DNA from: an uncultured Christensenellaceae bacterium
Lineage (GTDB): Bacteria; Bacillota; Clostridia; Christensenellales; UBA3700
Direction of reading: 5' to 3'
NCBI GenBank assembly: GCA_910588545.1
Contig: CAJUOU010000003.1
Location: forward strand, 54,248 to 118,247
Length of the DNA stretch: 64,000 bases
Shown one piece after another: positions 12,640 through 54,160 of this stretch. Numbering within the stretch: the first letter of the stretch is position 1; each line of letters starts with the position of its first letter. A program made the position numbers and the translations under genes. A model generated the notes under the pieces. It saw only the letters and a program-made list of their open reading frames with translations, made no database searches and had not been told where the DNA came from.

Positions 12640-13938
12640 TCAACCTTTGTTTTTCTTAATAACTTTTGCTCTTACAAGAGTACTCTCCTTTCCGTTTGTA
12701 GACGGAATATACAATTTTTCATCCCTTAAACTATCTGGCAGATACTGTTGCTCAACCCAACCTCCAAAGGAATGCGGATATTTGTACCCCTCCACTTTTT
12801 CAACCTTAAAATTTGCATCGCGCAAATATAACGGTACAATGTCATCTTTTGATTTATTGACAAGTTCGACAGCTTTATCCAAAGCGTTTACCACGCTGTT
12901 TGACTTGCTTGCCTCACATACATAAATAATACTATTTACAAGTGGCAGTCTACCCTCGGGCATACCAATATTTTGAATTGCAAACATTGCCGAAGTTGCC
13001 ATAAGTTGTGCCATAGGGTCTGCCATACCAACATCCTCTGCACTATGAGCAATCAGTCTCCTTGCAATAAGCATTGGGTCACAACCGCTTTCAATCAAAC
13101 GTATTGCCCAATATACCGCGGCATCCGAATCACTACCACGAAGACTTTTGCAAAATGCACTAAGCATATCGTAATACATAGATTCGTCTATCGAAAGTGC
13201 CTTTTTTTGTATAGACTCCTCTGCGATATTCTTATTGATAATTATCTTACCTTGGCTGTCGGGTTGAGTAGTAACAACTGCAAGCTCCAACGCATTGTAA
13301 GCAGTACGCAAATCCCCATCACTTGCCCATACTATATGGTTAAGTGCCTCATCGGTTATTTTTATCTCATAGTTACCCAAACCATTTTCCTTATCCGACA
13401 AAGCTTTATTTAAAGCTTGCTTAATATCTTGGGAGTTAAGCTTTTTAAACTCGAATATCCTACACCTTGAGACAATAGCCCTTGTCATTGATATAAACGG
13501 ATTTTCGGTCGTTGAGCCTATAAATACGATATAACCTTGCTCTATCCCCGCAAGCACTGAGTCTGATTGTGCTTTATTCCATCTATGGCACTCGTCAAGC
13601 ATAAGATAAGTTTTTTTGCCGTACATTTTCAATCTTTCTTTGGCATCTTCTATAACTTTTTTAGCCTCCGCAACACCGCTGGAAACTGCATTCAACCTTA
13701 CAAAGTCTGCCTTTGTCGTGTTTGCGATTATATTTGCCAAAGTAGTTTTACCGCACCCCGGCGGTCCGTAAAATATAATGCTACCAAGGCTATCCGCCGC
13801 AATAGCTCTTCTTAACAACTTGCCTTTGCCCACAATATGAGTCTGCCCAACAAAATCATCAAGACTTGTCGGTCTCATCCTTTCCGCAAGCGGTGCAAGT
13901 TTACTTGTATTATCCATAAAATCAAACAAATTATCCAT
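12640..13938 (-). CDS. rarA: Replication-associated recombination protein A (AAA+ ATPase)
   Basis: LAERMRP...GPPGCGKTT...LDECHRWNK...ALRGSDSDAAVYW, typical of MgsA/RarA. Confidence 0.92.
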   Translation of the reverse strand: MDNLFDFMDNTSKLAPLAERMRPTSLDDFVGQTHIVGKGKLLRRAIAADSLGSIIFYGPPGCGKTTLANIIANTTKADFVRLNAVSSGVAEAKKVIEDAKERLKMYGKKTYLMLDECHRWNKAQSDSVLAGIEQGYIVFIGSTTENPFISMTRAIVSRCRIFEFKKLNSQDIKQALNKALSDKENGLGNYEIKITDEALNHIVWASDGDLRTAYNALELAVVTTQPDSQGKIIINKNIAEESIQKKALSIDESMYYDMLSAFCKSLRGSDSDAAVYWAIRLIESGCDPMLIARRLIAHSAEDVGMADPMAQLMATSAMFAIQNIGMPEGRLPLVNSIIYVCEASKSNSVVNALDKAVELVNKSKDDIVPLYLRDANFKVEKVEGYKYPHSFGGWVEQQYLPDSLRDEKLYIPSTNGKESTLVRAKVIKKNKG

Positions 13939-14096
13939 ATAAACATTTTACACCTAATTATTAGCCGTTGTCAATAGTTATCAAAACTATATTTTATCAC
14001 AAATTATTATATATTAAACGCTTAATAATTTATATAGCACAATTTAAATGTATTAATCCGAAAGTTAAATATGCCTATTTAAGCCTAATTAATTTA

Positions 14097-14269
14097 ACAT
14101 AGAATAAGTATATCTATGTACAAAATCGAAGATTTTTTGAGTTTAAATATATAATTTTTGTATGCTTAAAGTAAAGAGTTTACAAAACCTTTATCATAAC
14201 GTTGACATTATCTTACTTTTTAGTTTAAAATATACATATAATATGTACATAGATATACTTATTCCATGT
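14097..14269. promoter_or_regulatory. Candidate invertible promoter element (inverton), copy 1
   Basis: IR-L ACATAGAATAAGTATATCTATGTACA at 14097-14122. IR-R at 14244-14269 is its reverse complement with 1 mismatch. The core carries TTGACA (14202-14207)-18-TAAAAT (14226-14231) reading toward +. Confidence 0.5.
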
Positions 14270-14420
14270 ACCCAAACTTTACATTAAAGGCAAATATTTA
14301 ACCCCAATAGTCCCGATTTTTGATAGGATTATTGCAGTGAACAGCACTTTTTGCCAACTTGAAACTTTACACAAAAAGTTACACCCCAAAATTAAATGTT
14401 TCGGGGTGTATTTTATTTTT
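14238..14420 (+). ncRNA. Candidate ~180-nt sRNA (copy 1), from the core promoter to an intrinsic terminator
   Basis: Predicted TSS ~7 nt after the -10. Hairpins: GGCAAA/TTTGCC (14289-14294 with 14350-14355) enclosing a 9-bp stem (14305-14313 with 14326-14334), then AACTT/AAGTT (14356-14360 with 14376-14380), then terminator ACACCCC...GGGGTGT plus T-run (14381-14420). No plausible ORF. Confidence 0.4.
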
Positions 14421-14569
14421 AAGATTTATATCTTCTATCAAAATGCTAGAAAAAATGTGGCTCATTTAATGATTATCTGCTTAATCAACTTTTATCTTAA
14501 ATTGCATTAGGCATTAAATTATCTTTATACCAAAAACCATTTATTGCTATATAAGTTAACTAACAAAAA

Positions 14570-14602
14570 ATATCGGGGTGAGATTCACTCCGATATTTTT
14601 TG
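14570..14602. terminator. Bidirectional terminator after the minus-strand gene 14682-16016
   Basis: 11-bp stem ATATCGGGGTG / CACTCCGATAT (one G-U pair) flanked by A-run and T-run. Confidence 0.65.
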
Positions 14603-14681
14603 TTAATTAAATTAAAAACAACACTTGTCGCAATTATTCTAAAAATTATAATCTTAATCAATCGTATTGACTGCTAAATTA

Positions 14682-16016
14682 TTACCTTTTACCCCAATAG
14701 TCACTCGCCTTTGTGGTTATAATATGTGTAGGGGTTATTTGTCCCGTCTCATCCATAACAATTTTTGTACCTCCAAAAAAGTAGCTTGAATTCCAAGGCT
14801 TAGGGGACGGACCTGCTTTTAAGCCATATCCGTACATTATATTGTCATATTCAAATACTATATCATTTTCGTGGTCGTGACCTACAAACCAACCTTTTAA
14901 TCCCAAATCTTTCATACTGTCGACCATACCTGTATTGTATAGTGCGTGTCCCGGAACATAAGCAAACCTGCCTAAAATTCCCTTTAACTCTTTCCCGTCA
15001 ACAACAGGATAACTGTTATCGCTATCGCTAGCGGGTTTAAACTCCGGAGTGTTACCGCTTGGCGGGTTATAAGCACCGCTAATCGTCCAATACCCCTCAC
15101 TATCCTGCTTTTGCAAATCATCGCTACTACTATTGTCTTGGATTTGTCCGTCAAGTCTGCCGTTTGCTCCTGCCACATATTTAAGCAATACATTTCCCAT
15201 TTCATAAGGCGCACAATGTGTAAAGAATATACTTGGCACAACGCTGCCCGATAATTTGTTTATGTTTTTAGCTTGCCATTTACACCACTCAATTTGTGCG
15301 TAAGGGAATGGCCTTTCCTTATTGTTTCTGCCCTCTTTTTCGTAAACGGAGTTTTTTAATTCCTTTGAATAGTTTGCATAAGCACTATTATCCAACATAT
15401 AAAGTGACTGAACTATTTTGTCCCCCTCTTTTACATTTATGACATAGTTGCCAAGCAAATCGCCATACTCGTCGCCCAAATTAGTTGGACCTTTTTGAAA
15501 AAGACAATGTCCGCCGTTTTCGCGAGAGGCTTTTAAATATTGGTCTCCCGACCAATTAGGAGTTGCGCGCATTTCGTTATCGTGATTACCAAAAACAGGC
15601 GCCCACAAAAAATCATAGTTTGCAGCCAGCTCCTCAATTTTGTTAACAAAAGTTTTTAAAAGCTCAGGCACACCCACGCCCGAAACATTATCTCCTGTAA
15701 AAACAACCAAATCCGGCTCTGCTTGCATTATAACTTTTTCCGCTGTTTCAAATGCAAAATTATTATCCTTACCGCTACTCCAAAGTTGCATATCGGTCAG
15801 TTGAACTATTACAAAATCTTTATTCGCCTCTTTTTGCACAACAACCGAATGTGTGTTTATATCGTACGCAGAGTTAGGACCAAGCCATAAATTTTCGTAC
15901 TTTTTGCCTTTAAGAGGTATAAACAATACGCATACAGTTACGATTAGACTAACCAAAACAATACTGCAAATACTACCTACAATGCAAATAAATTTTTTGT
16001 TTTTTACAGATAACAT
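14682..16016 (-). CDS. Membrane-anchored calcineurin-like metallophosphoesterase
   Basis: N-terminal TM helix, then TGDNV, GNHDNE and GHDHEND motifs. Start moved to MLSVKNKK (ATG 16016), which has an AAGGGAGAA RBS. Confidence 0.8.
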   Translation of the reverse strand: MLSVKNKKFICIVGSICSIVLVSLIVTVCVLFIPLKGKKYENLWLGPNSAYDINTHSVVVQKEANKDFVIVQLTDMQLWSSGKDNNFAFETAEKVIMQAEPDLVVFTGDNVSGVGVPELLKTFVNKIEELAANYDFLWAPVFGNHDNEMRATPNWSGDQYLKASRENGGHCLFQKGPTNLGDEYGDLLGNYVINVKEGDKIVQSLYMLDNSAYANYSKELKNSVYEKEGRNNKERPFPYAQIEWCKWQAKNINKLSGSVVPSIFFTHCAPYEMGNVLLKYVAGANGRLDGQIQDNSSSDDLQKQDSEGYWTISGAYNPPSGNTPEFKPASDSDNSYPVVDGKELKGILGRFAYVPGHALYNTGMVDSMKDLGLKGWFVGHDHENDIVFEYDNIMYGYGLKAGPSPKPWNSSYFFGGTKIVMDETGQITPTHIITTKASDYWGKR

Positions 16017-16228: not shown

Positions 16229-17143
16229 TTACCGTCTAAGTAGTTTTCCTACTCTGTTCATCATTGACGTTTTGTGGTCAAACATCGAGTGTGCATATCT
16301 ATTTAACGTAATTGTAGGGTTTGCATGTCCCAAAATTTCCGACAATGTTTTAACATCCATACCGCACTCTAACGCACGTGTTGCAAAAGTATGTCTTAAG
16401 GAGTGGAAGCCCTTGTGAGCAATGCCCAAATCCAACAACATTTTTTCAAAAAACCTTTGATATGTCCTTACACCCGAGCCATAGTCTGTCCTGCCTGGGA
16501 TAACATACTTGGACTCCGCATTTCTTCTCATAACTTTAAGATAAGGCACAAGCTGTTTAGGCATTGGTATTATCCTTTGAGAAGTATGTGTCTTAGGGGT
16601 GTCGATTACTTTTACATAGCCGCTCTCCCCCCAACTGTCGTGACAAGACTTGGAAACTTTGATAACGCACTTTCTCATATCCAAATCCGACCACTCAAGT
16701 GCCAACAACTCGCCTAAACGAATACCTGTATAAAGTGTCAAAAGCACACCGAAATACTTTGGTTTGTCAATAAAGACGATAAAGTTTTCAAGCTTTCTTT
16801 GCTCATAGATTGAAAAACACTCCACACGTTTTAGCTGTTGCTTTGGACGGGTAAGATAGTTTGAATATTCCTTGTCTATTATATCCAATTCCACAGCCTT
16901 GACAAGCGACAACTTTAATAGTGAAATCATTCCGTGAATCGTTGCACTTGCATATCCTTGATACATTTTTGTGTTGACAAATTGCTGCAACACAGCTGTC
17001 GACAACTCGTTCAAGTGATATTCACCTAGCTCAGGCAAAATATGAGCTTTTGCTAAATGACAATACTTTTCGTATGTCCTTTCCTTTACTTGTGACTTTA
17101 CATAGCAGTTAAGCCACTCACTGCACCATTGTTTGTAAACCAT
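16229..17143 (-). CDS. Tyrosine site-specific recombinase (phage-integrase/Xer family), orphan
   Basis: Full catalytic set visible: TGIRLGE (Arg), HSLRHTF (His-x-x-Arg), LGHANP (His), RYAHS (Tyr). An N-terminal SAM-like core-binding domain is present. Start at MVYKQW (ATG 17143), with GGAGG 8 nt upstream. No phage, IS or ICE genes are adjacent. Confidence 0.9.
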   Translation of the reverse strand: MVYKQWCSEWLNCYVKSQVKERTYEKYCHLAKAHILPELGEYHLNELSTAVLQQFVNTKMYQGYASATIHGMISLLKLSLVKAVELDIIDKEYSNYLTRPKQQLKRVECFSIYEQRKLENFIVFIDKPKYFGVLLTLYTGIRLGELLALEWSDLDMRKCVIKVSKSCHDSWGESGYVKVIDTPKTHTSQRIIPMPKQLVPYLKVMRRNAESKYVIPGRTDYGSGVRTYQRFFEKMLLDLGIAHKGFHSLRHTFATRALECGMDVKTLSEILGHANPTITLNRYAHSMFDHKTSMMNRVGKLLRR

Positions 17144-17355
17144 AATTGGTTCCTCCATAAAAAAATTTATTTCACTTTTAAAAAAGTGATACTTTAATTA
17201 TAATTCACAATTTGGCAGTTTTAAATATTTTTTCTTTACTTTTTCCGAAAATTTACATATATTTTTAATAATTATTTTACATTGATTTTATTTTAGAGAT
17301 TTTTTCTCACATAATTATTAAATAATTTTAACTTTTACTATACATTTGTTTTATT

Positions 17356-22172: not shown

Positions 22173-23471
22173 TTATAATTTTGCATCTTTAGTAGCAGGG
22201 TTATTTATCATTTTCCCGTTACTCTCAAACCTTGAGCCATGACAACTGCAATCCCAACTATGTTCCCTTTTGTTATACTTTAATGCACATCCTAAATGCG
22301 GGCAACGTTTAATTGTCGGACACAACATATTTACCACAACAGCGCCTATATTAGCAAACAGTTGCATTCTTAAAACACGTCTTTTTGTAGCAAAAGTTTT
22401 TGCAAATTCATTATCCTTGCCGCAAACAATGTCTTTTAAAACCATAGCCCCTACCATAGAGCCTGTCATTCCCCACAAATTAAATCCTGTTGTTACAAAC
22501 ACGTTATTAAGATTCCCGTATCTACCTATATATGGCATATCGTCAAGGGTTACACAATCTTGATTTGCCCACAAATATTTGACTTCCGCATCAGGATAAA
22601 ACTTGTCCTTAAAGTCTTTCAACTGCTCTAGTGCTTTGGTTTTGCAACCCGTTCTGTGTTCTCCTTTGCCGACTATCAATAAATCATTGTAATTCCTAAA
22701 ATAAAAACCCTCTTCCTTATCGTCTATAAAACTGCCATTCAACTTGTTTTCAACTTGCAAAGCCATAACGTATGAACGTTTTTGGTGCATTTTGATAAAA
22801 AACCAACCGTGTGTATTGATAAACGGAAAGTGACTTGCAACAATCGCTTGCTTAAACTTTATATTGCCTTTATCGGTAAAAGCCATGTCGCCGTCAATCT
22901 TTTTTACAAATGTGTTTTCGTATATTTTTAGTTTTTCGGCTAGTTTGTACAAAAATTTCAACGGATGAAACTGTGCCATATCATTAAATTTAACGGCACT
23001 TCTTATATCGTAAGGCAATTCCGTTTCAAAAACAAGCTCGGCATCATATCCAAGTTTTTTCAAAGCCTTTACTTCGTCATTCAAATTGTAATCTTTAGAG
23101 TACATGTACGACGGAGTTATTTCAAAATCGCAATCGATTTGCTCCCTGTTTATAAGTTGCTTAAACTCCTCTACAGCGGATAAATTTGCCATCAAATAAT
23201 TTTTGGCATTTTCCTCGCCGTAATACTTTATTAAATCTTTATACGGCGTATCATGTTGCGCTGTAATTACTGCGGTGGTTTTTGCAGTCATACCACTTCC
23301 TATTTGTGCCCCCTCAACCAAAACAACATTTTTACCCTCACGCATTAAATAGTACGCGGTCAATATACCTGCCATTCCTCCACCAATAACCAATATATCG
23401 CAGCCTATGTCTCTGTTTAACTGTTCAAATTCTTTTTTCTGCGAAAACTCGCTCCATACACTTTTATCCAT
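22173..23471 (-). CDS. FAD-dependent oxidoreductase fused to a C-terminal Rieske [2Fe-2S] domain
   Basis: Dinucleotide fold DILVIGGGMAGILTAYYL. Rieske ligands CPHLGC...CSCHGS. Confidence 0.85.
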   Translation of the reverse strand: MDKSVWSEFSQKKEFEQLNRDIGCDILVIGGGMAGILTAYYLMREGKNVVLVEGAQIGSGMTAKTTAVITAQHDTPYKDLIKYYGEENAKNYLMANLSAVEEFKQLINREQIDCDFEITPSYMYSKDYNLNDEVKALKKLGYDAELVFETELPYDIRSAVKFNDMAQFHPLKFLYKLAEKLKIYENTFVKKIDGDMAFTDKGNIKFKQAIVASHFPFINTHGWFFIKMHQKRSYVMALQVENKLNGSFIDDKEEGFYFRNYNDLLIVGKGEHRTGCKTKALEQLKDFKDKFYPDAEVKYLWANQDCVTLDDMPYIGRYGNLNNVFVTTGFNLWGMTGSMVGAMVLKDIVCGKDNEFAKTFATKRRVLRMQLFANIGAVVVNMLCPTIKRCPHLGCALKYNKREHSWDCSCHGSRFESNGKMINNPATKDAKL

Positions 23472-23597: not shown

Positions 23598-26396
23598 TTA
23601 AAAGAATAAGTTTATCATAAGTAATTTATCTATTACATTTCTTACAATTTCTGCATCTGCAGATGTTACATTGCCTTTGTTGACTACCATGCTTGCCAGC
23701 TTCTTTTCCGTACTCAAACTTTGGTATAATGTATCGTCACTTGCTAATTGTCTTAGGTATGATACATCGCTTGCACTTATCCTGCCGTCTCCGTTCACAT
23801 CCCCTAATACGGATAAAGTTATTCTTTCCACTTTACTACCCGATTGGTACTCCATATACCAACCTGTTCCAATAGCTAACTCTTTGCCGTTATTCAGTAA
23901 ATTTTCATTCACATTAGCATTGCCTTTGTCATATATTAACATGCCTTTACTGTTGTATATTTGCAACTTGGTTATATCAAACATTAAATTATTGACAAAT
24001 TCGTTTACGCTTGTATTAGGAGTAATATTGCCTAAAATCAATTTGCCGTTGTTATTTGTTGCAACTACTTCGCTATCATTTACCAATCGATAAATACCAT
24101 TTTCCCTATAACTTTTTCTAACCAATTTATCTCCGTCCTGTTCCAAATATAAAAAGTCATAAATGCCGTTTTTAATCATACTTTTATCTTCGATTGTGTA
24201 GGTTAAACTTATCTCCTCCGTTCCGCCTGTTGCCCACTCGTAATTACTCGTGTCTTTAATAGTTATTTTTGCGGTATGAACACCTGCCGTCTTAGCCTTA
24301 TTTCCCTCGATTTCCATTTTGTCATCATCAAAATTATCTGGCGTAAATACATGTTCCTCTCCGTCCAAAATGTAGTTTGCACTTCCGCTTGGAGCAGTCA
24401 ATTTTGCTTTTGTAATATTATAATATTTTGTATTTGAGGAAGCTTTTATCTTATAGTTTTTATTGCTTAAGGCAATGGCTACAGCTTTATACCCGCTACC
24501 TGCATTTATATTGCCGCCTTGTATGGTAACAGTACACTCGCTATCCTCCGCTATGCTTGCGGCTGGGCTTTGCACTTTTCCGTTATATACCAGATTGTCA
24601 TTATTCCATACTACATTTACTTCCTTAGGCAAAATGGTAAACATAAATGTAGGATTTTTATAATTACCTGCAGAATAAAAAGCATAACTTCCCGCATCCC
24701 TCAATGTACGACTTGTAAATGGAGCATCTTCTCCTTGCATATAAATTTCGCCTGTTGCGGAAATTACATAATCACGCCCCGTGTAGTTTACTGTCGCATT
24801 AGACCCGCCGTTTGTTTGACCACCTGTCCACTTCCAAGTCAAGTCGGTAGCAGTATTATCTTCATCTTTCAAAATAGCCTCTGTGCCCGAAGTGCCTATT
24901 CGTTTATTGCTGTTTGAAAAGAAATATCTGCTTGGAGTGATATCGTAATTGCCACCTGTATAATATCCGTAGGTAAATTCTCCTGTGTAATCGCTACTCA
25001 ACAAAACACCGACATGTGTTGTACTACTTGAAGTAGCCAATTTTCCTACTACCCTAATCCTCTCGCCTTTTGTCAAAAAAACATCTGCAGCACCGCTTGA
25101 GTTTGTATTATTATAAATTTGAGCACCTGCACCGATTGCAATAGTACCGTATGCACTGGTTACAGCGTGGTGTGTATTTATACCTGCTCCGTCCTTAGCA
25201 GAAATATTATTGTAAATTTTGCAGTTTCTTATAATAACATCACTTGACACAATAGTAATAGCTCCGTATGTATCAAAACTATTATTCCTAATTTCGCCGC
25301 CATTAAAATTAAATGTACCCACTTGCGTGTAAACTACTCCTGCACCGCTTTTATTAGCCAAATCATTCATAAAATAATTTCTTTCTATTATACCGTCGTC
25401 CATATTGAACTCTTTACAAACAACACGCATAGCGCATCCCCATCCATGGGCGGCATTTCTAGATATTAATCCACCGGTTATATTTACCGTAGATTTGTCA
25501 TTATAAGCACTTATGGCTCCACCCGTATCAATAGCAGAATTATTATGTATAATTCCTCCGTTAATTTGCAATTTTTTTGCTTGAAAATTTATTGCTCCGC
25601 CATCCCCTGAAATTATTCCATTATGTACGCCGATTGCTTGGTTATTAATTATCATTCCGCTATTAATTGTAATCGAGCTGTTTATTCCGGAATAAATAGC
25701 ACCTCCTCCTTGCGAGCCTTGTGCAATATTTCCGTAAATCATCCCGCCGTTCATCTCAAAGTAGCCCTCGTAGCTAACAACTAGTGCTCCACCGTCATTT
25801 GTAATATATCCGCCTGTTATACCACCCGCACCATAACTTTGCAAATTTGATTCCGGATTTTTATTATACGCATCCAAAACTTTTTGCTCATCGTATTTAC
25901 TATCCATAAGAATCAAATTGCCCCTTACATACATAACATTACCCCAATTAACCGCTACAGTCAATTTTCTGTCAATTTTAAAACCATTTAAATCCAATGT
26001 AATTGTCGCTCCTTCCGGAACAGCAATGCTACCATTGAAAAAGCTATTTTCATAACTGCCAAAATAGTTATTGCCGCTAGTAGGAGCAATCCAATCCCTT
26101 GACAATACAACTTTGATATGCAAGCCTTCCAATGACTCGACAATTACGTCATTCCACTCTTCGGCAATCTCTTCACAAGTAGTTCCTTTAAATATTACTT
26201 CCTTATCTATTTTACCGACAGTACTTTTTGTGATATTATTTTTGGAGTCTATGCTAACATTATCGATATTACTTGTAGGTGCACTTTCCAAAACATTTTT
26301 GTTCGCATTTGCAAAAACTACTATCCCGATTAATAATAGACAAGATATTACTGACACAAAAAATATTATTCCTGCCCTTTTAATAATCTTTGCCAT
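23598..26396 (-). CDS. Large cell-surface protein: signal anchor, Pmp-like GGAI beta-helix repeats, MBG-type Ig-like repeats, C-terminal dockerin
   Basis: Repeated GGAI/GGAL motifs (GGALVV, GGGAIYSG, DGGAINF, TGGAISAY). YNGKVQSP and YKAVAIALSNKNYKI blocks. C-terminal GDVNGDGRISASDVSYLRQ...VNKGNVTSADAEIVRN is a type-I dockerin pair. Start set at MAKIIKRAG (ATG 26396, GGAGG at 26404-26408) rather than the track start at 26447. Confidence 0.85.
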   Translation of the reverse strand: MAKIIKRAGIIFFVSVISCLLLIGIVVFANANKNVLESAPTSNIDNVSIDSKNNITKSTVGKIDKEVIFKGTTCEEIAEEWNDVIVESLEGLHIKVVLSRDWIAPTSGNNYFGSYENSFFNGSIAVPEGATITLDLNGFKIDRKLTVAVNWGNVMYVRGNLILMDSKYDEQKVLDAYNKNPESNLQSYGAGGITGGYITNDGGALVVSYEGYFEMNGGMIYGNIAQGSQGGGAIYSGINSSITINSGMIINNQAIGVHNGIISGDGGAINFQAKKLQINGGIIHNNSAIDTGGAISAYNDKSTVNITGGLISRNAAHGWGCAMRVVCKEFNMDDGIIERNYFMNDLANKSGAGVVYTQVGTFNFNGGEIRNNSFDTYGAITIVSSDVIIRNCKIYNNISAKDGAGINTHHAVTSAYGTIAIGAGAQIYNNTNSSGAADVFLTKGERIRVVGKLATSSSTTHVGVLLSSDYTGEFTYGYYTGGNYDITPSRYFFSNSNKRIGTSGTEAILKDEDNTATDLTWKWTGGQTNGGSNATVNYTGRDYVISATGEIYMQGEDAPFTSRTLRDAGSYAFYSAGNYKNPTFMFTILPKEVNVVWNNDNLVYNGKVQSPAASIAEDSECTVTIQGGNINAGSGYKAVAIALSNKNYKIKASSNTKYYNITKAKLTAPSGSANYILDGEEHVFTPDNFDDDKMEIEGNKAKTAGVHTAKITIKDTSNYEWATGGTEEISLTYTIEDKSMIKNGIYDFLYLEQDGDKLVRKSYRENGIYRLVNDSEVVATNNNGKLILGNITPNTSVNEFVNNLMFDITKLQIYNSKGMLIYDKGNANVNENLLNNGKELAIGTGWYMEYQSGSKVERITLSVLGDVNGDGRISASDVSYLRQLASDDTLYQSLSTEKKLASMVVNKGNVTSADAEIVRNVIDKLLMINLFF

Positions 26397-26420
26397 AATA
26401 AAACCTCCGTTTTTTACCTT

Positions 26421-26593
26421 ACATAGAATAAGTATATCTATGTACAAAATCGAGGATTTTCGGGAAAGTTTTTTAAAGTTTTTGTAGCTTTTTTGTAAAG
26501 CAATTACAAAATGTTTAATTAAACGTTGACAAAAGTTTACTTTTGACCCTATAATATATATATAAAATGTACATAGATATACTTATTCCATGT
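26421..26593. promoter_or_regulatory. Candidate invertible promoter element (inverton), copy 2, abutting the surface-protein start
   Basis: IR-L at 26421-26446 and IR-R at 26568-26593 (1 mismatch). The core carries TTGACA (26526-26531)-18-TATAAT (26550-26555) reading + and away from the gene, whose ATG lies 24 nt outside IR-L. Confidence 0.55.
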
Positions 26594-26744
26594 ACCCAAA
26601 CTTTACATTAAAGGCAAATATTTAACCCCAATAGTCCCGATTTTTGATAGGATTATTGCAGTGAACGGCACTTTTTGCCTACTTTAAACTTTACAAAAAA
26701 AGTAACACCCCAAAACTAATCGTTTCAGGGTGTATTTTTTATTT
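26562..26744 (+). ncRNA. Candidate ~180-nt sRNA (copy 2)
   Basis: Same predicted structure as copy 1. Hairpin TACTTT/AAAGTA (26680-26685 with 26699-26704) shows a compensatory A-T to T-A swap relative to copy 1. Terminator ACACCC...GGGTGT plus T-run at 26705-26744. Confidence 0.4.
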
Positions 26745-26854
26745 AAGTCAATTTTAAATTTGTCAAAAATTAAGACAAAAAATGGCTTATTTATAAGTTG
26801 TTGATAGAAATTTAAGCAATTAAAATCGCCTTGCATAACTGCAGAGCGTTAGAT

Positions 26855-27220
26855 TTATTGTTTAGCGACAAAATTTTTAACTATTTCAAATATATCATCC
26901 GTAATTACATGCTCAATACGGCAAGCATTTTCTTCCGCGCTTTCCTCCTCTGCACCTAGTTTTATCAAAGCTTGCATAAGCACCCTGTGTCTTTCAAAAA
27001 TATTTTCCGCCTTTTGTCGTCCCACATCGGTAAGCACGAGTTCGCCTGTATTTTTAATTTCTACAAACCCTTTTTTTGCAAGCAGATTGACAGCTTTGGA
27101 TACACTTGATTTAGCATATCCCAACTCCTCCACAATATCTACCGAGCGGACTAAACTTTTTTTATTTTTTAAATTTAGTATTGTTTCCAAATACATTTCT
27201 TCAGACTCATAAACTCTCAT
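26855..27220 (-). CDS. DtxR/MntR-family metal-dependent transcriptional regulator
   Basis: EMYLETIL...VRSVDIVEELGYAKSSVSKAVNLLAKKGFV winged-helix region plus the dimerisation helix HRVLMQ. The start choice (ATG 27220) is uncertain. Confidence 0.8.
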   Translation of the reverse strand: MRVYESEEMYLETILNLKNKKSLVRSVDIVEELGYAKSSVSKAVNLLAKKGFVEIKNTGELVLTDVGRQKAENIFERHRVLMQALIKLGAEEESAEENACRIEHVITDDIFEIVKNFVAKQ

Positions 27221-27389
27221 ACCAATTCCCAAACCTTTACTATTGTAACATTACATATATTTTAACATAATTTTGTTTAAAATGCAATAACAAATTTAAT
27301 TACCGCATATCTGCAAATTTATACATTATTTTTGTCTGTAATAAAATATCAAAGTATGTTAATATCACAGCTAATTGTTCGCATACAAA

Positions 27390-27416
27390 AAGCAAGCCTA
27401 AAATAAGCCTGCTTAA
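27390..27416 (-). terminator. Terminator of lemA
   Basis: On the minus strand a 10-bp stem AAGCAGGCUU/AGGCUUGCUU (two G-U pairs) followed by a U-run. Confidence 0.55.
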
Positions 27417-43034: not shown

Positions 43035-43990
43035 GCGAATTACACAATAAAGAAATGCGTCAAGTTTACGTTGACAATTTGATTAAATACTCTAAACTCG
43101 ACAGAAGAATTGTCGTGCTTGAGGCAGACCTTATGAACTGCATAGGTACAGGCAAGTTTAAGGAAGCTTTTCCAAGACGTTTTATTAACTGCGGAATTGC
43201 GGAAAGTAATATGATAGGTGTGGCAGCAGGTCTTGCAAGTTGCGGCAAATTGCCTTTCTGCTCTTCTTTTACTCCGTTTGCTACAAGAAGATGCTATGAC
43301 CAAATCGCAGTTAGCGTTGGATATACAAAACAAAATGTAAAAATAGTAGGAACAGACCCCGGCATTATGGCTCAAATAAACGGCGGCACACACATGAGCT
43401 TTGAGGACGTTGCTCTTATGACTCAAGTACCCGATATGATTGTTGTTGAGCCTTGCGATTGCGTTTGCCTTGACAAACTATTCCCTCAAATTTTAAAATG
43501 TGATAAACCGATGTATATTAGATTGCAAAGGAAAAAGACTCCTCCAATCTATGACGAAAAAGCTAAAATCGACCTTTTTAAAGCTAATACTGTTGTGGAC
43601 GGAGATAGCCTTACCATCATAGCTTGTGGCATTATGGTACACCGTGCTATAGCGGCATCAATGACTTTGAAAAACCAAGGTATTAATGCAAGGGTTATTG
43701 CACTTCACACTTACAAGCCTTTGGATAGTGAAACAATACTTAATGCTTGTCGCGAAACAGGTGCGGTAGTAGTTTGCGAAAACCATCACTTGATAGGCGG
43801 CTTGGGCTCTGAAGTTGCTGCACTGCTTATGCAAAATGATGTGCTTATCCCTATGACTAGGGTTGGTATCGGTGACAGATACGGCGAAGTCGGCAAAGAA
43901 GCTTACCTTGCGGAAGTTATGCACCTAACCGAGCAAGACATTGTGGAAAAAGCGCAAGAAGCTTACAAAAGAAAACTTTCAAATATGTAA
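43031..43990 (+). CDS. tkt: Transketolase, C-terminal (pyrimidine-binding) subunit
   Basis: FINCGIAESNMIGVAAGLA motif. ATGA start/stop overlap with the N subunit and a GGAGG RBS. Confidence 0.92.
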   Translation: MSELHNKEMRQVYVDNLIKYSKLDRRIVVLEADLMNCIGTGKFKEAFPRRFINCGIAESNMIGVAAGLASCGKLPFCSSFTPFATRRCYDQIAVSVGYTKQNVKIVGTDPGIMAQINGGTHMSFEDVALMTQVPDMIVVEPCDCVCLDKLFPQILKCDKPMYIRLQRKKTPPIYDEKAKIDLFKANTVVDGDSLTIIACGIMVHRAIAASMTLKNQGINARVIALHTYKPLDSETILNACRETGAVVVCENHHLIGGLGSEVAALLMQNDVLIPMTRVGIGDRYGEVGKEAYLAEVMHLTEQDIVEKAQEAYKRKLSNM

Positions 43991-44062
43991 TTATAAAAAA
44001 ACAAAAACTACTGAATAAGCTCAGTAGTTTTTGTTTTTACCCCCGATTTTCAATTAATTTTT
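43934..44062 (+). repeat. Left copy of island-flanking direct repeat (authentic tkt 3' end + terminator + ACCCCCGATTTTCAATTAATTTTT)
   Basis: Aligns with 53937-54064. I counted 11 mismatches in the 57-nt coding part and about 6 differences in the 72-nt non-coding part. Confidence 0.85.
44002..44038 (+). terminator. tkt terminator
   Basis: 13-bp stem CAAAAACTACTGA/TCAGTAGTTTTTG followed by TTTTT. Confidence 0.85.
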
Positions 44063-44170
44063 GTCAAAAATTATCTTTTTATTTTAAAACAAATTCATTT
44101 AAACACTTAAATAATTAAAGAGTTTTAATGGCGTTTTATCAATTAAATAGCAAGTGAAAATGTATCATGT

Positions 44171-46755: not shown

Positions 46756-46952
46756 AAAACCTCCTTAATTAATATAAATTTTAATTTTGGAGTAAAACTA
46801 TATAACTAGCAGTCCTCATCATAAGTATTTTAACATAGTTTTACTCGTTTTTCAATATGAAAAATCAAATTAATTTTTCAATGTTCGCATTTTTTGTTGC
46901 TACACTCTTTAAAAACTTTCTCTTATCACCTCCTTAAGATATTACATTTTCC

Positions 46953-47032
46953 CCCTTCTACTTTATATACGAATAACTTGGCAATTTTTATTCAAAAAAA
47001 AGAAGAATTTTTGAAAATCTCAAAAATTCTTC
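46953..47032 (-). promoter_or_regulatory. Repeated module: 13-bp-stem terminator plus TGAATA-N17-CGTATA promoter (copy upstream of the ABC gene)
   Basis: Hairpin GAAGAATTTTTGA-aaatc-TCAAAAATTCTTC (47002-47032) plus a U-run. -35 TGAATA is the complement of 46989-46994 and -10 CGTATA the complement of 46966-46971. About 78 bp are near-identical to 51655-51736. Confidence 0.6.
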
Positions 47033-47071: not shown

Positions 47072-50000
47072 TCAATTTAAAAACATATCAAAAAATTCAT
47101 TTGAGTAAGCAGAAGGCAAATCTACTATAGAATCTTCAACTTGATGTTGTCCTGCAACTGGTTTACTTACTTGATCACCTACAGGTCCCACAGAAGTGGT
47201 GCCATCACGACCATATTCACCATTTTTACCATCGCTGCCATTGTTTCCTATAATTCCAGCATTTCCTCCTTTACCACCAGTACCTTTGTGACCAATATTG
47301 CCATTTTTACCATTGATACCACCATCAGTAGTTAAAGTTTCAACATTAGTTCCTTGAGCAGCACTTCCTGCAACTCCATTGGTTCCACCATTGCCACCTT
47401 TACCACCATCACCAGGGTCACCTGTTCCAGTAAACCAATCTCCACTAACATCATCAGCACCTTTGCCGCCATTACCACCATTGCCGCCATTGCCACCGTT
47501 TCCACCGTCGCCACCTTTAATATAATAATTAGAACCACGAGCAACATTAATTATATTATTTGATGCATAAATAGCATATCCGCCATTACCACCGTTTCCA
47601 CCAGCAGATCCATCTTTTCCTGGAGCGCCATCATCACCCTTTATAGGTTTAAAAATACTACCTCTTGGAGGTCTTTCACCATCTTTACCATTTTCACCAT
47701 TATAGCCGCTACTACCATTTCCGCCATTACCACCATAGATATAAACTTTAGAATCAGAATTAAAAGCCATTAATGTAACTTCCTTAGCTTTAATTCCATA
47801 ACCGCCATTAGCACCAGCTACACCATTACCACTTCCATCAGCTCCATTTCCGCCTTTAATGGTAACTGAACCAAAGTAAGTTAAATAAATTGCTGAACTT
47901 TCACAATCAATAGCATTAACTGCACCTCCAGTTGGTGCTTTTATATCAATATTTTTCAAGCCAAATAGAATTGCACCATTTCTGTTTAAAACATTAATTT
48001 TTGCAGTTATTGTCATATATCCATTGCCAATAAATGTTATCATTTTTACAGAAGAGTTTATATTTATAGTATACTTCATACTACTTGAAGCATTAGAAAA
48101 ATCTACTATAGCAACTCTATCAGTGATAGACAAATTCTCACTTGCTGTAATAACTCTTCCTTCCCATTCTACTACTAATTCAATATCTTTAAATATTTCT
48201 TTTGTATTTTCAAAACTATTACCATTATAACTCCATTTTACAAATAAATAACCAAATTTTTGTGGAGTAGCAAGTTCTGTGTTAAACACTGGATTGTCTA
48301 CTGTAAATTCATTTGGCAAATCAAACACAACATCGGCATACCTAAAATTATATGTAATATTATATTTAATTAAATCATATTGAGGGTATAATGTGTTGCT
48401 ATCAATTTGATCTTCCCATACCCATGTTTTTCTTGCATCAATGATAAGATTTCCACCTATTGGTTTATCAAACCAACCTTTAAATATCTTACCTTCTATT
48501 TCTGGAATTGCTATATCCAATGTTTGTCCATATTCAATAAATACTTCTTGTCCCCCATTATCACCGATAATAATTTGATATTTTGATGTTTCATATTTTG
48601 CTAATAGACTAATATCGTCATAAAAATCAATCATATCATTAACATTCAATCTTGTTCCATTATATTCCCAACCACAAAAATCTTTACCAGTTATTACTGG
48701 AGCAACAATATAGTTATCAAACTTAGACCCATAATACTCTGTCCTACTGCCAATAAAATTATTATTTATATCATAAAAATTGATTGTTAATTCTTTTGCT
48801 TTTAATGTATTAGTCAAATTAACAAAACAGATATTCTCTTGATATTCCTGCAATCTAGCTTCTTTTACATACAATATAACTTTATCATCAAAACAATCCC
48901 CATCTAAAACTGGTGGAATATCAGAAGTAAATATTATGCTTTCTAAATCTGTTGCACCTTTAAATGCTGAAACTCCTATAGAATCAATTTTATCAGACAA
49001 TATAATTTGAGTAGGGACATTGTTATCAAAACAATCTCTTCCTATTCTATGTATATTATCTGGAATTTTTACAATTCTTTCTGTTCCAAAATACTTTAAC
49101 AAAACTTTTCCTAAAATTACAAATTTACTTGCATTATTTGAATACCAAGGGGTATCTAACAAAGCGGTAATATCACAATCAATAATATTATTTGCATTAT
49201 TAATATATGCCAATGAACTATTTGTGAATGTTTCAGGTCCAATAAACTCTACTTGATTTAAATTAATAGTTCTAATATTTTTGTTGTTTTTAAATAATCT
49301 AGCATTTAAAATTGTTACTTTATCAGGAATTGTTATTTCAGAAACTACAGGATTTGCATATATTGCCACTTTTTTATCTGTATCTGTAACATTACATTTA
49401 ATTAAAATATTATCTTGCCAAACATAATTTGCATTGCTTTTAAAATTAGTAATCATAGTGCCTAAAAAAGCATCATCTTCAATACTATTAACACCATAAG
49501 GTATGATAAAATCAGTTATTGCTGTATTTGCAAAAGCACATTTAGTTATGATATTAAGAGAGGTATTAGCACTTAAATTTACATTGTTCAAATTACTACA
49601 TCCTGCAAATGCTCTTTCGCCCAAATTGTTCAAATATGGCAAATTGATAGAAGTTAATCCTAAACAATTTTCAAAAGCTGAATTGCCAATATTTTTCAAC
49701 TTATCCATAGCACTTCCTATATTAATACTTGAACAATTATAAAATGCTTCTGCGCCAACATTTTGTAAATTACCTAAGTCATCTAATGCTTCCAATTTAG
49801 TACAATTTTTAAAAGCATAATCTCCAATGTGTGTTACATTGTTCAAATTAGTTATAGATTTTAAATTAGTACAATTTTCAAAAGTTCCTATACCTATATT
49901 TTTAATGTTTTTGGATAAAGCCAAATTTTCAATACTATTATTAGCAAATACATAATCACCTAATTCAGTAACATTTTTTTCATAAATTGTATCAGGAATA

Positions 50001-50782
50001 GTTGTTATACCTTTTGCTTCGGGAATAAGTAATCTATTAATTTTTATTTCATTATTATTAATTTCCACTGCTTCGTATAGAAATTGCGGTCTTAATCCTA
50101 TAACATTTGATTCTATTAATATGTCATATTCTGCCTCTCCTTGTGGTGAATCATTAAAAATTTGCACACAATCACCTTGTGAAACATGTTGAATGATTTT
50201 TTTTGCAATTTCTTGATCACTTAAATCTAAATATTCAAGTCCATATTTTCGCCCTTTCTCATTATTAAATAAATCCATTTCTTTATCAACACCTTGCGAA
50301 TCATCTCCACTTTCATGTGCATCTGCATAAGTTTTAGCATCATCAACTCCCACATATTTAACCATTAATGCATTCCAATATGTATGTCTAAAAGCATCCC
50401 CATTATCCTTATAAAGACTTCCATCATAATAATATAGTGCTTCAGCTTTTGCTAACTTACTACACTCATATATTTGCAATGCAGCGCCTGGTTTTGTAAA
50501 TATAAATGTTTTTTCATCAGGCGAAAGATCTCCATAAAAATCATGAAATTTATCATATAAAGATTTTTCATCTTCAGTTTCATTATTATCTGTTTCATCA
50601 TTAATAGATTGCCTCTCTATTTGATTTACACTCAATTCACTAAACTTTGCTTTGTTGATATTAGCAAATTGCATAGTTTTTCCTATTAAAATTGTCCAAC
50701 TAAATATTGCAATAATCAAAATTGTTGGAATCAATAAAAACTTAAAAAGTTTTGAATTTTTAATTCTTTTATGTTTATCCAT
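47072..50782 (-). CDS. Giant surface protein: TM anchor, DUF6973-like domain, BspA-type LRRs, Listeria-Bacteroides repeats, Gly-rich/collagen-like C-terminus
   Basis: GDAFRHTYWNALM...DAHE...MDLFNNEKGRKYG block. More than 10 repeats of the IGxxAFxNCxxLxxI type. FCGWEYNG and FKGWFDKPIGG repeats. 14 uninterrupted G-X-Y triplets (GINGKNGNIGHKG...GRDGTT). Confidence 0.8.
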   Translation of the reverse strand: MDKHKRIKNSKLFKFLLIPTILIIAIFSWTILIGKTMQFANINKAKFSELSVNQIERQSINDETDNNETEDEKSLYDKFHDFYGDLSPDEKTFIFTKPGAALQIYECSKLAKAEALYYYDGSLYKDNGDAFRHTYWNALMVKYVGVDDAKTYADAHESGDDSQGVDKEMDLFNNEKGRKYGLEYLDLSDQEIAKKIIQHVSQGDCVQIFNDSPQGEAEYDILIESNVIGLRPQFLYEAVEINNNEIKINRLLIPEAKGITTIPDTIYEKNVTELGDYVFANNSIENLALSKNIKNIGIGTFENCTNLKSITNLNNVTHIGDYAFKNCTKLEALDDLGNLQNVGAEAFYNCSSINIGSAMDKLKNIGNSAFENCLGLTSINLPYLNNLGERAFAGCSNLNNVNLSANTSLNIITKCAFANTAITDFIIPYGVNSIEDDAFLGTMITNFKSNANYVWQDNILIKCNVTDTDKKVAIYANPVVSEITIPDKVTILNARLFKNNKNIRTINLNQVEFIGPETFTNSSLAYINNANNIIDCDITALLDTPWYSNNASKFVILGKVLLKYFGTERIVKIPDNIHRIGRDCFDNNVPTQIILSDKIDSIGVSAFKGATDLESIIFTSDIPPVLDGDCFDDKVILYVKEARLQEYQENICFVNLTNTLKAKELTINFYDINNNFIGSRTEYYGSKFDNYIVAPVITGKDFCGWEYNGTRLNVNDMIDFYDDISLLAKYETSKYQIIIGDNGGQEVFIEYGQTLDIAIPEIEGKIFKGWFDKPIGGNLIIDARKTWVWEDQIDSNTLYPQYDLIKYNITYNFRYADVVFDLPNEFTVDNPVFNTELATPQKFGYLFVKWSYNGNSFENTKEIFKDIELVVEWEGRVITASENLSITDRVAIVDFSNASSSMKYTININSSVKMITFIGNGYMTITAKINVLNRNGAILFGLKNIDIKAPTGGAVNAIDCESSAIYLTYFGSVTIKGGNGADGSGNGVAGANGGYGIKAKEVTLMAFNSDSKVYIYGGNGGNGSSGYNGENGKDGERPPRGSIFKPIKGDDGAPGKDGSAGGNGGNGGYAIYASNNIINVARGSNYYIKGGDGGNGGNGGNGGNGGKGADDVSGDWFTGTGDPGDGGKGGNGGTNGVAGSAAQGTNVETLTTDGGINGKNGNIGHKGTGGKGGNAGIIGNNGSDGKNGEYGRDGTTSVGPVGDQVSKPVAGQHQVEDSIVDLPSAYSNEFFDMFLN

Positions 50783-51654: not shown

Positions 51655-51736
51655 TCCCTTTCTACTTTATATACGAATAACTTGGCAATTTTTATTCAAA
51701 AAAAAGAAGAATTTTTGAAAATCTCAAAAATTCTTC
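51655..51736 (-). promoter_or_regulatory. Repeated module: terminator plus TGAATA-N17-CGTATA promoter (copy upstream of the lipoprotein and giant-protein genes)
   Basis: Hairpin at 51706-51736. -35 is the complement of 51693-51698 and -10 the complement of 51670-51675. Confidence 0.6.
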
Positions 51737-53910: not shown

Positions 53911-53939
53911 ATTATATCTTACTTGCCACAGTATGTCAA
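53911..53939 (-). promoter_or_regulatory. Consensus sigma-A promoter of the island sigma gene
   Basis: On the minus strand TTGACA (53934-53939)-17-TATAAT (53911-53916). It lies on the antisense strand of the tkt relic. Confidence 0.6.
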
Positions 53940-53993
53940 GATTTTGTTAAAAAAGCACAAGAAACTTACAACAGGAAACTTGAAAATATATAA
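53913..53993 (+). pseudogene. Relic 3' end of a second, diverged transketolase C-subunit gene
   Basis: 53937-53993 translates to QDFVKKAQETYNRKLENI-stop, against QDIVEKAQEAYKRKLSNM-stop for the real tkt end (43934-43990). Weaker similarity continues ~8 codons further upstream, and a stop at 53904-53906 closes the frame. Confidence 0.7.
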
Positions 53994-54064
53994 TTATAAA
54001 AAATAAAAACTACTGATTTAAACTCAGTAGTTTTTGTTTTACCCCCGATTTTCAATTAATTTTT
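53937..54064 (+). repeat. Right copy of island-flanking direct repeat (relic tkt end + second terminator copy + ACCCCCGATTTTCAATTAATTTTT)
   Basis: Same stem AAAAACTACTGA/TCAGTAGTTTTT as 44002-44038 with a different loop. Confidence 0.85.
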
Positions 54065-54160
54065 TTAAAACGCCTTTTAAATTTAAAATCATTTAAATAA
54101 CTTCTTTCATAGGTGTTGTTTTATTTTAGAGCATTGTAACTTTTAAGTTGCATTTAAAAA

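Follow-up and report, generated by a model that had tools for sequence, protein, structure and literature searches.

A probable invertible-promoter phase switch, assembled in the OFF orientation, before a dockerin protein gene of an uncultured Christensenellaceae bacterium

The one consensus promoter beside a gene for a 932-aa dockerin protein points away from it. The gene lies in a stretch of 64,000 nucleotides from an uncultured Christensenellaceae bacterium (assembly GCA_910588545.1, contig CAJUOU010000003.1, positions 54,248 to 118,247 of the forward strand), which we call the window and whose first letter is position 1 below. The window has 34% G+C, carries rpoB, pnp and tmRNA, and is ordinary bacterial chromosome. 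The ATG of the gene, at 26396 on the minus strand, is separated by 24 nt from an inverted repeat (IR). Together with a second IR this repeat encloses a short segment with a promoter that faces away from the gene. A sequence-only reading of the window had proposed that this promoter segment can be inverted by a tyrosine recombinase and was assembled in its OFF state. The coordinates that it gave for the IRs, the promoter, the Shine-Dalgarno (SD) sequence and the ATG all held when we re-checked the sequence. The proposal itself is supported by about 100 sampled copies of the element, by their near-invariant IRs and by the presence of both orientations at a homologous locus encoding a DUF6273 protein. 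We consider it highly probable that the feature is a tyrosine-recombinase-type phase switch with an invertible promoter, assembled in its OFF state.

A repeat search returned arms of 27 nt at 26420-26446 and 26568-26594, which were 96% complementary and 121 nt apart. The 26-mer of the IR was observed four times in the window, while dinucleotide shuffles of the window gave an expectation of 0 matches. Comparison of copies set the functional IR at 25 nt (26421-26445 and 26569-26593) and the invertible segment at 123 bp (26446-26568). The arms have a single mismatch, A/G at IR position 5; in most elements of this species it consistently separates the gene-side from the flank-side IR and, judged across these copies, is not random decay. 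Within 25800-27400 the sole 12/12 match to a promoter consensus was TTGACA (26526-26531), an 18-nt spacer and TATAAT (26550-26555) on the plus strand. The full repeated unit was approximately 330 bp long and consisted of a terminator, a conserved flank of about 110 nt, one IR, the 123-bp core and the other IR (Table 1).

Table 1. Features of the switch, its second copy and the associated genes in the window.
Feature	Position	Strand	Details
Second, orphan switch copy, type A core	14097-14269	+	TTGACA 14202-14207, 18-nt spacer, TAAAAT 14226-14231
Flank of the second copy, conserved, with terminator hairpin (~14381-14409)	14270-14423	-	
Candidate cognate tyrosine recombinase, 309 aa	16229-17158	-	PF00589 and PF14659 matches
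Controlled gene (predicted), 932 aa	23598-26396	-	N-terminal signal/transmembrane segment MAKIIKRAGIIFFVSVISCLLL, repetitive all-beta body, C-terminal type I dockerin
Leader with SD sequence	26397-26420	-	24 nt; GGAGG 26404-26408
IR-L, gene-side inverted repeat	26421-26445	+	ACATAGAATAAGTATATCTATGTAC; internal palindrome ACATAGA-9 nt-TCTATGT
Invertible core, type B, OFF orientation here	26446-26568	.	123 bp
Core promoter, sigma-70-type, TTGACA-18-TATAAT	26526-26555	+	12/12 consensus match; faces the flank, away from the gene
IR-R, flank-side inverted repeat	26569-26593	-	ACATGGAATAAGTATATCTATGTAC in minus-strand reading
Conserved flank	26594-26704	-	~110 nt; ~97% identity to 14270-14380
Terminator hairpin	26705-26733	.	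T-runs on both strands

We found no orientation-specific terminator inside the core; the only terminator-like hairpin was outside, in the flank. A switch of the cwpV type, with a fixed outside promoter and an orientation-dependent terminator, was rejected, as here the consensus promoter is inside the segment and the terminator outside. A hybrid with that arrangement would be possible, given a weak extended -10-like motif in the flank that is described below.

Further, we collected the family of this element by scanning for an exact 20-mer of the IR, in one genome per species and in metagenome contigs of the Joint Genome Institute (JGI), and by exact-protein look-ups. The scan of the species-representative genomes gave 50 stretches, nearly all of them in two metagenome-assembled genomes (MAGs) from mouse gut. 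There were approximately 30 elements in CANSGN01 ("uncultured Clostridia bacterium"), whose flank is near-identical to that of the window, so this MAG would belong to the window's species or to a sister species. Approximately 19 elements were in CAJTYW01 ("uncultured Christensenella sp."), and the JGI contigs added 48 further stretches with the 20-mer. The interval between the 26-mers was 121-124 nt in all elements, and 74 of the 82 unique elements had a 123-bp core between 25-nt IRs. Throughout the first set of 53 elements, the position of TTGACA within the core did not vary. On one side, every family element carried the terminator hairpin followed by the conserved flank. On the opposite side, about 50 loci shared a conserved leader, AAAAACGGAGGTTTTATT-ATG, with the ATG 22-25 nt from the gene-side IR, and the open reading frames (ORFs) behind it were 500-1200 aa long with the N-terminus MAKIIKRAGIVFFVLVIS.

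The orientation of each element was assigned by its flank, an element with the promoter directed into the flank being counted as OFF. Our census of 97 complete elements gave 94 OFF and 3 ON. All 53 loci of what we call the MAKIIKR family and all 10 copies adjacent to the gene for MgsA were OFF. The window's own locus was OFF in 4/4 assemblies, namely the window, L001, L129 and an orthologue in L048 (L-numbers are our handles for individual sequences). A general IR scan of the JGI metagenome contigs also found the family, all OFF. The three ON elements (L041, L058 and L111) came from three independent assemblies and two species. All of them stood before orthologues of a 563/564-aa protein with DUF6273 and a dockerin, with a slightly different leader, and this DUF6273 locus was ON in 3/15 copies.

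We compared the two orientations at this locus within each species. In the Christensenella-like species, L058 was ON, while L110, L113-L116, L120 and the partial contigs L117 and L118 were OFF. L058 and L110 represent the same locus, with 697/700 identity downstream and both IRs identical at 25/25 positions. Their cores were identical at 123/123 positions when one was read as the reverse complement and at 58/123 when compared directly. In the window-like species, L041 and L111 were ON and L112, a contig that ends inside the core, was OFF. The L112 core had 86/92 identity to the reverse complement and 40/92 in direct comparison, and the gene behind it was 95% identical. In copies whose two ends differ at the innermost base (ACA vs ACT), this base moved with the core. 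These comparisons show directly, for the family and at the DUF6273 locus, that this type of element inverts precisely and in place in natural populations. This removes for the family the static readings, that is an RNA hairpin or a fixed divergent promoter, as well as a miniature inverted-repeat transposable element (MITE). The ON copies gave a leader of about 55-65 nt with the IR and the SD sequence, close to the flipped geometry predicted earlier for the window (promoter about 12 nt from IR-L and a leader of about 55 nt carrying the SD sequence). By homology, the window copy would flip in the same way.

Many metagenome contigs terminated at or inside elements (L008-L011, L014, L030, L033, L052, L057, L064-L066, L069, L071, L123, L124, L135, L137, L140 and others), and the family is a systematic source of assembly breaks in these genomes. 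We also observed single IR matches at the ends of very short contigs in unrelated MAGs, L042 (Gastranaerophilaceae, 1.9-kb contig) and L010 (Eubacteriales). Mis-binning of fragments from the same organism group, and not horizontal spread, is the probable cause.

The DUF6273 locus had one further feature. The upstream neighbour of the DUF6273-dockerin gene in L111 (1-191) matched PF22296 (bAvd), an accessory protein of diversity-generating retroelements (DGRs), and DUF6273 appears in papers on DGRs and hypervariability. The gene that is most often ON may therefore also be a DGR target. If each of the approximately 30 loci were ON in a few percent of cells, the DUF6273 locus would be the one most often expressed.

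We then considered which enzyme could act on these repeats. Each IR is itself a small palindrome, ACATAGA-ATAAGTATA-TCTATGT, whose two arms flank an asymmetric centre. Tyrosine-recombinase core sites such as lox, FRT and dif are built in this way, with a binding arm on either side of the centre. In 164 half-sites, IR positions 13-25 (the inner arm) were invariant and the only variable positions were 5, 6 and 8 in the outer arm and 11-12 in the centre, most elements having been retrieved with the exact 20-mer, which constrains one arm per IR pair. This pattern would fit protein binding rather than an RNA stem.

The ORF at 16229-17158, nominated earlier as the recombinase, proved to be a tyrosine recombinase by its PF00589 and PF14659 matches, and it is syntenic with the elements. 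The motifs RLGE, HSLRH and LNRYAH are visible in its sequence. It stayed under every Xer or integron equivalog cut-off of NCBIfam (best, XerA_Arch with 72 bits vs 220; XerC with 64 vs 335), and we rejected an identity as Xer or integron integrase; it is a generic tyrosine recombinase, whose closest PDB match was Tn1549 Int. The gene order of phosphatidylinositol-specific phospholipase C, recombinase, metallophosphoesterase and element was kept in the window's species and in one more distant species group. That distant species (P0048; L121-L125), with a recombinase 77% identical to that of the window, was found through the protein and not through the IR. There the IR centre was ACA instead of AAG in both arms of 5/5 unique elements. 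A paired change is what one would expect if strands are exchanged at the centre, since partner sites have to match there. Another homologue of the recombinase, with 59% identity, adjoined a relaxase, with no such IR nearby. Judged by synteny, the recombinase at 16229-17158 is most likely the enzyme that flips the switch. Separately, a few elements elsewhere had AAA in one arm only (L059 at 7000, L060, L068 and L075), and these may be locked.

The conserved flank is the other part of the element that called for an explanation. Read in gene direction, it contains a TGTAAAGTTT box, TAGGCA-18-(TG)cAATAAT (26681-26652), a CTATCAAAAATCGGG box and a AATGTAAAG box. Boxes common to three species groups were TGTAAAGT just past the terminator, CAAAAATCGGGG, and AATGTAAA 8-9 nt before the IR. 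In all OFF elements, TGTAA[AG] boxes shared one strand. Counted from the flank-side IR they stood at -102, -14, +52 and +85, with spacings of 88, 66 and 33 bp, each a multiple of 11. In the window these boxes are at approximately 26608-26613 and 26696-26701 and within 26446-26568. We speculate that the flank boxes are binding sites for an accessory or directionality factor, which could explain the strong OFF bias. The helically phased TGTAA[AG] boxes might have an accessory role.

The extended -10-like motif TGCAATAAT (26660-26652), with TAGGCA 18 nt upstream, faces the gene. We found it in two of the three species groups and not in the third. It is possibly a weak fixed promoter upstream of the switch. 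The earlier statement that the locus leaves no room for a fixed promoter thus stands for the interval between the IR and the ATG, and does not extend to the flank upstream, which carries this motif.

RNAalifold detected no conserved structure in the flank on either strand; only the terminator and the IR palindrome folded consistently. A structured small RNA or a riboswitch in the flank is unlikely. A search of the whole window against Rfam at the gathering threshold returned tmRNA only, and the flank RNA matched no known family. The terminator hairpin was held by compensatory changes between loci, and its gene-direction T-run was present in species groups 1 and 2, the groups examined. The hairpin is predicted to end the upstream Fe-repressor gene in gene direction.

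We propose the following mechanism. A tyrosine recombinase, most likely that at 16229-17158, would flip the 123-bp promoter segment between the two 25-nt inverted sites. In the ON orientation the promoter would lie 12-15 nt from the gene-side IR and, if active, would drive transcription of this IR, then of the 24-nt SD leader and then of the gene for the 932-aa secreted dockerin protein. The folded mRNA is predicted to begin with the small hairpin of the IR, followed by a largely unpaired SD leader. In the OFF orientation, transcription would start near 26562 on the plus strand, cover IR-R as well as the flank and end at the 26705-26733 hairpin, and the predicted RNA, folded in the same way, would be about 180 nt long. 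Expression of the gene would thus follow orientation. The hairpin would also block read-through from the upstream Fe-repressor gene and so insulate the silent gene. The switch would be one of approximately 30 standardised cassettes per genome, each before a different paralogue made of a signal peptide, a variable beta-rich body and a dockerin. Each cell would likely display a small, changing subset of the dockerin proteins.

Several observations weigh against this mechanism at the window's own locus. We did not find a flipped copy of the window locus in the few assemblies reached by exact-protein look-ups or through a paralogue, and none of the 53 MAKIIKR-family loci was ON in any assembly. 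The ON-specific junction GGGTACATGGAATAAGTATATCTATGTACAAAATC gave 0 matches in the JGI metagenome contigs, which is uninformative alone. A census that is all OFF would result from loci that are each ON in no more than a few percent of cells, and equally from locked copies. The family elements of this species carry the arm mismatch at position 5 (A vs G), and the proven-invertible DUF6273 locus is without it. In addition, the flank of about 110 nt, with its gene-facing extended -10-like motif, is conserved and is unexplained by a simple ON/OFF flip of a promoter. An alternative is an arrangement in which the family is invertible but the window copy and the other MAKIIKR-family copies are locked. 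The core would then be a fixed divergent promoter making a flank RNA of about 180 nt, antisense to a fixed flank promoter (TAGGCA-18-TGcAATAAT), and the gene would be controlled by transcriptional interference. The preponderance of flank-facing elements (94/97, with all 53 family loci and the 4/4 assemblies of the window locus) would follow, and conservation of the flank and terminator, the retention of TGCAATAAT in two species groups and the one-base arm mismatch of this species would agree with it. Nevertheless, the IRs, including the spacer, are the same as at the loci that flip, and in the second species group the arms of the family IRs match perfectly, while a locked promoter needs no cross-species invariance of both IRs. 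The third species group lacks the TGCAATAAT motif, and the flank shows no conserved RNA structure. A terminator directly before a constitutive promoter would be pointless, but it is sensible as the insulator of an ON/OFF switch. We regard locked copies as unlikely.

Two other explanations concern the family as a whole. As all the evidence comes from metagenome assemblies, and these repeats do break contigs, the opposite orientations could be assembly artefacts, or else rare RecA-mediated inversions across short repeats, instead of programmed recombination. SPAdes (NODE_) and MEGAHIT (k119/k141), the assemblers named in the contig ids, use default k-mers that exceed 25 nt. The IR is shorter than these k-mers, and a flipped contig therefore requires reads that cross the flipped junctions. 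The ON copies moreover come from three independent assemblies of two species, the inversion boundaries are exact, and recombinase synteny together with the paired change of the IR centre points to a dedicated enzyme. This makes artefact or RecA-mediated inversion very improbable. A MITE, finally, would consist of the 173-bp IR-bounded unit, spread through the genome and carrying promoter-like sequence by chance. In its favour are the terminal IRs, each about 25 nt long, the body, which is short and AT-rich, a copy number in the dozens per genome and the contig breaks at the copies. However, there were no target-site duplications, the junctions being ...TTTGGGT|IR at one end and IR|AAGGTAAAA at the opposite end. 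Homology did not end at the terminal repeats: it extended about 150 nt past one of them, and past the other through the SD sequence, the ATG and the signal peptide. The distance to the start codon was fixed at 22-25 nt in about 50 loci, the cores diverged (74% identity, types A vs B) while the IRs remained identical, and the segment inverts in place. We rejected the MITE, whose probability we consider close to nil. The invertible-promoter switch remains our preferred reading of the locus.

The sequence-only reading had called the product of the 932-aa gene a Pmp-like beta-helix protein with a dockerin. The dockerin was borne out by a PF00404 match (24.4 bits vs a cut-off of 22.9, residues 864-921), and PF00404 also occurred in 8/9 of the other element-linked proteins scanned. 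This match confirms, at the level of predicted domains, a dockerin surface or secreted protein. The beta-helix part has indirect backing through paralogues. These share a signal/transmembrane N-terminus, a divergent beta-rich middle and a C-terminal dockerin; some of them matched Chlam_PMP (PF02415) or Beta_helix (PF13229), and the family alignment had a GGxIxxN...GGGIY repeat consensus. In the Pfam scan the 932-aa protein itself matched neither PF02415 nor PF13229. Its AlphaFold2 model (mean predicted local distance difference test score of 73.8) was all-beta, with regular short strands over residues ~60-760 followed by a helical dockerin. A sequence search of the PDB gave no matches, and Foldseek with the model gave only weak immunoglobulin-like matches. 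A Pmp-like beta-helix is plausible for this protein.

The window holds a second copy of the switch. Its IR pair, 14097-14122 and 14244-14269, had the same spacing and orientation as the first pair in the 26-mer search. Self-BLAST aligned 14097-14423 with 26421-26747, and the homology unit began exactly at the outer end of IR-L. IR-R was identical in the two copies, the cores were 74% identical with the promoter hexamers kept, and the flanks were about 97% identical; homology ran about 150 nt past IR-R, through the terminator hairpin. This orphan copy stands 158 nt upstream of the minus-strand gene mgsA/rarA (12640-13938), and the SD-coupled leader is absent. The mgsA gene has its own promoter-like TTGACA-18-TAAAAT directly before its ATG. 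The MgsA-adjacent copy was kept in other species (L013, L039, L076 and L107), in which the outer arm of the gene-side IR was often degenerate. We also considered whether the equal-length 432-aa ORFs at 12640-13938 and 22173-23471 were a duplicated transposase, and rejected this; they are unrelated and encode MgsA and a DAO/Rieske oxidoreductase.

Cassettes of this kind were gained or lost between related genomes. An extra cassette, a type B switch with a 968/970-aa dockerin gene, was present in L005 (359-3840), L006 (365-3840) and L039 (201-3675), and the window is without it. It was placed between the metallophosphoesterase gene and the MgsA-adjacent switch, corresponding to 13938-14700 of the window. 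The crossover maps to the conserved flank just past the terminator, which points to cassette gain and loss by homologous recombination between the repeated flanks. In L001 a different gene (676 aa) was upstream of the switch of the 932-aa gene. In L107 (1488-1797) a GC-richer insert of about 260 bp separated the SD leader from the core, with a direct duplication of the gene-side IR around it; it was apparently inserted at the recombination site.

Other short intergenic palindromic repeats occur in the window, 46952-47032 vs 51656-51736 (99% identity) and 43934-44069 vs 53937-54070 (86%), and are probably shared terminator-like hairpins. One such repeat is just downstream of the gene for a 1236-aa BspA-type leucine-rich repeat/DUF6973 protein (47072-50782).

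Taken together, the results suggest a fuller picture, which we put forward tentatively and with somewhat more doubt than conviction. It would be a surface-variation system of approximately 30 genes, in which every dockerin-bearing, Pmp-like or DUF6273 protein has its own terminator-insulated cassette and one dedicated tyrosine recombinase flips all of them. The TGTAA[AG] and CAAAAATCGGGG boxes would bias the switches to OFF. The Pmp-like genes would be OFF in the population consensus, and the DUF6273 protein, possibly DGR-linked, would most often be ON. If this is true, it would exceed in size every promoter-inversion regulon so far described in Firmicutes, and no earlier one would have dockerin-anchored proteins under its control.

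Christensenella-like Clostridia are widespread gut commensals and mostly uncultured. We know of no account of how they vary their surface. A dockerin regulon with about 30 switches would give them a combinatorially variable, cohesin-docked surface or secreted repertoire, which bears on immune evasion (immunoglobulin A), resistance to phages and adhesion in the niche. With its invariant 25-nt site and its fixed geometry of 123 bp, the system would be easy to quantify in existing metagenomes by PhaseFinder-style junction counts. The compact insulated cassette, together with the recombinase, could serve as a switch in synthetic biology.

We compared the element with known phase-variation systems. 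In Mycoplasma penetrans, the switches of the mpl (P35 lipoprotein) family are short promoter segments between IRs of 12 nt, acted on by tyrosine recombinases. A review describes 38 mpl genes, each driven by its own promoter inversion, with combinatorial ON/OFF states (PMC10502178). This system is the closest in logic, with a large paralogous family of surface proteins and one invertible promoter per gene. It belongs to another phylum-level lineage, whereas our elements are in a walled, Christensenella-like gut MAG of the Clostridia. Its cargo is lipoproteins, while here the cargo is signal-peptide/dockerin, Pmp-like proteins, and the IRs here are 25 nt long, with an insulated conserved flank and a terminator, compared with 12 nt in mpl.

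In Clostridioides difficile, the fixed promoter of cwpV is followed by a terminator that depends on orientation, and flgB is controlled post-initiation, through Rho. The tyrosine recombinase RecV inverts several short IR-flanked segments before surface and motility genes of this species (flgB, cwpV, cmrRST, pdcB and others; PMC7446863, PMC9286219). As tyrosine-recombinase switches of Clostridia, these are the closest in phylogeny and enzymology. They differ in having fewer than 10 sites, dissimilar IRs and mixed mechanisms, in contrast to approximately 30 near-identical cassettes with the promoter inside.

Closest in ecology are the invertons of Bacteroides, with polysaccharide operons or SusC/D-like proteins as cargo. 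In B. fragilis the master invertase, Mpi, is a serine recombinase. The Bacteroides capsule (PSA-H) and gut invertons have many promoters per genome that share an IR and a promoter consensus, a recombinase encoded elsewhere, and surface structures as targets (PMC11892184). The same study linked inverton groups to invertase groups, including a Clostridia group, 139, with tyrosine recombinases, and reported a median of 3 invertons per genome for Clostridia-like Firmicutes_A (PMC11892184), compared with approximately 30 here.

The present element also shares with fimS of E. coli an IR-bounded promoter, a tyrosine recombinase and an OFF bias. The fimS segment, flipped by the tyrosine recombinases FimB and FimE, which are encoded nearby, is a single locus of 314 bp with 9-bp IRs and with IHF and Lrp sites. 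Here there are many loci, and each IR is a full core-type site of 25 nt. In the literature that we searched, no paper joined invertible promoters with dockerin, or invertons with Christensenellales, and two inverton surveys mentioned neither dockerin nor Christensenella. The mechanism, multi-locus phase variation by invertible promoters, is already known; the novelty lies in the lineage, in the family of cargo proteins, in the number of copies and in the standardised, insulated form of the cassette.

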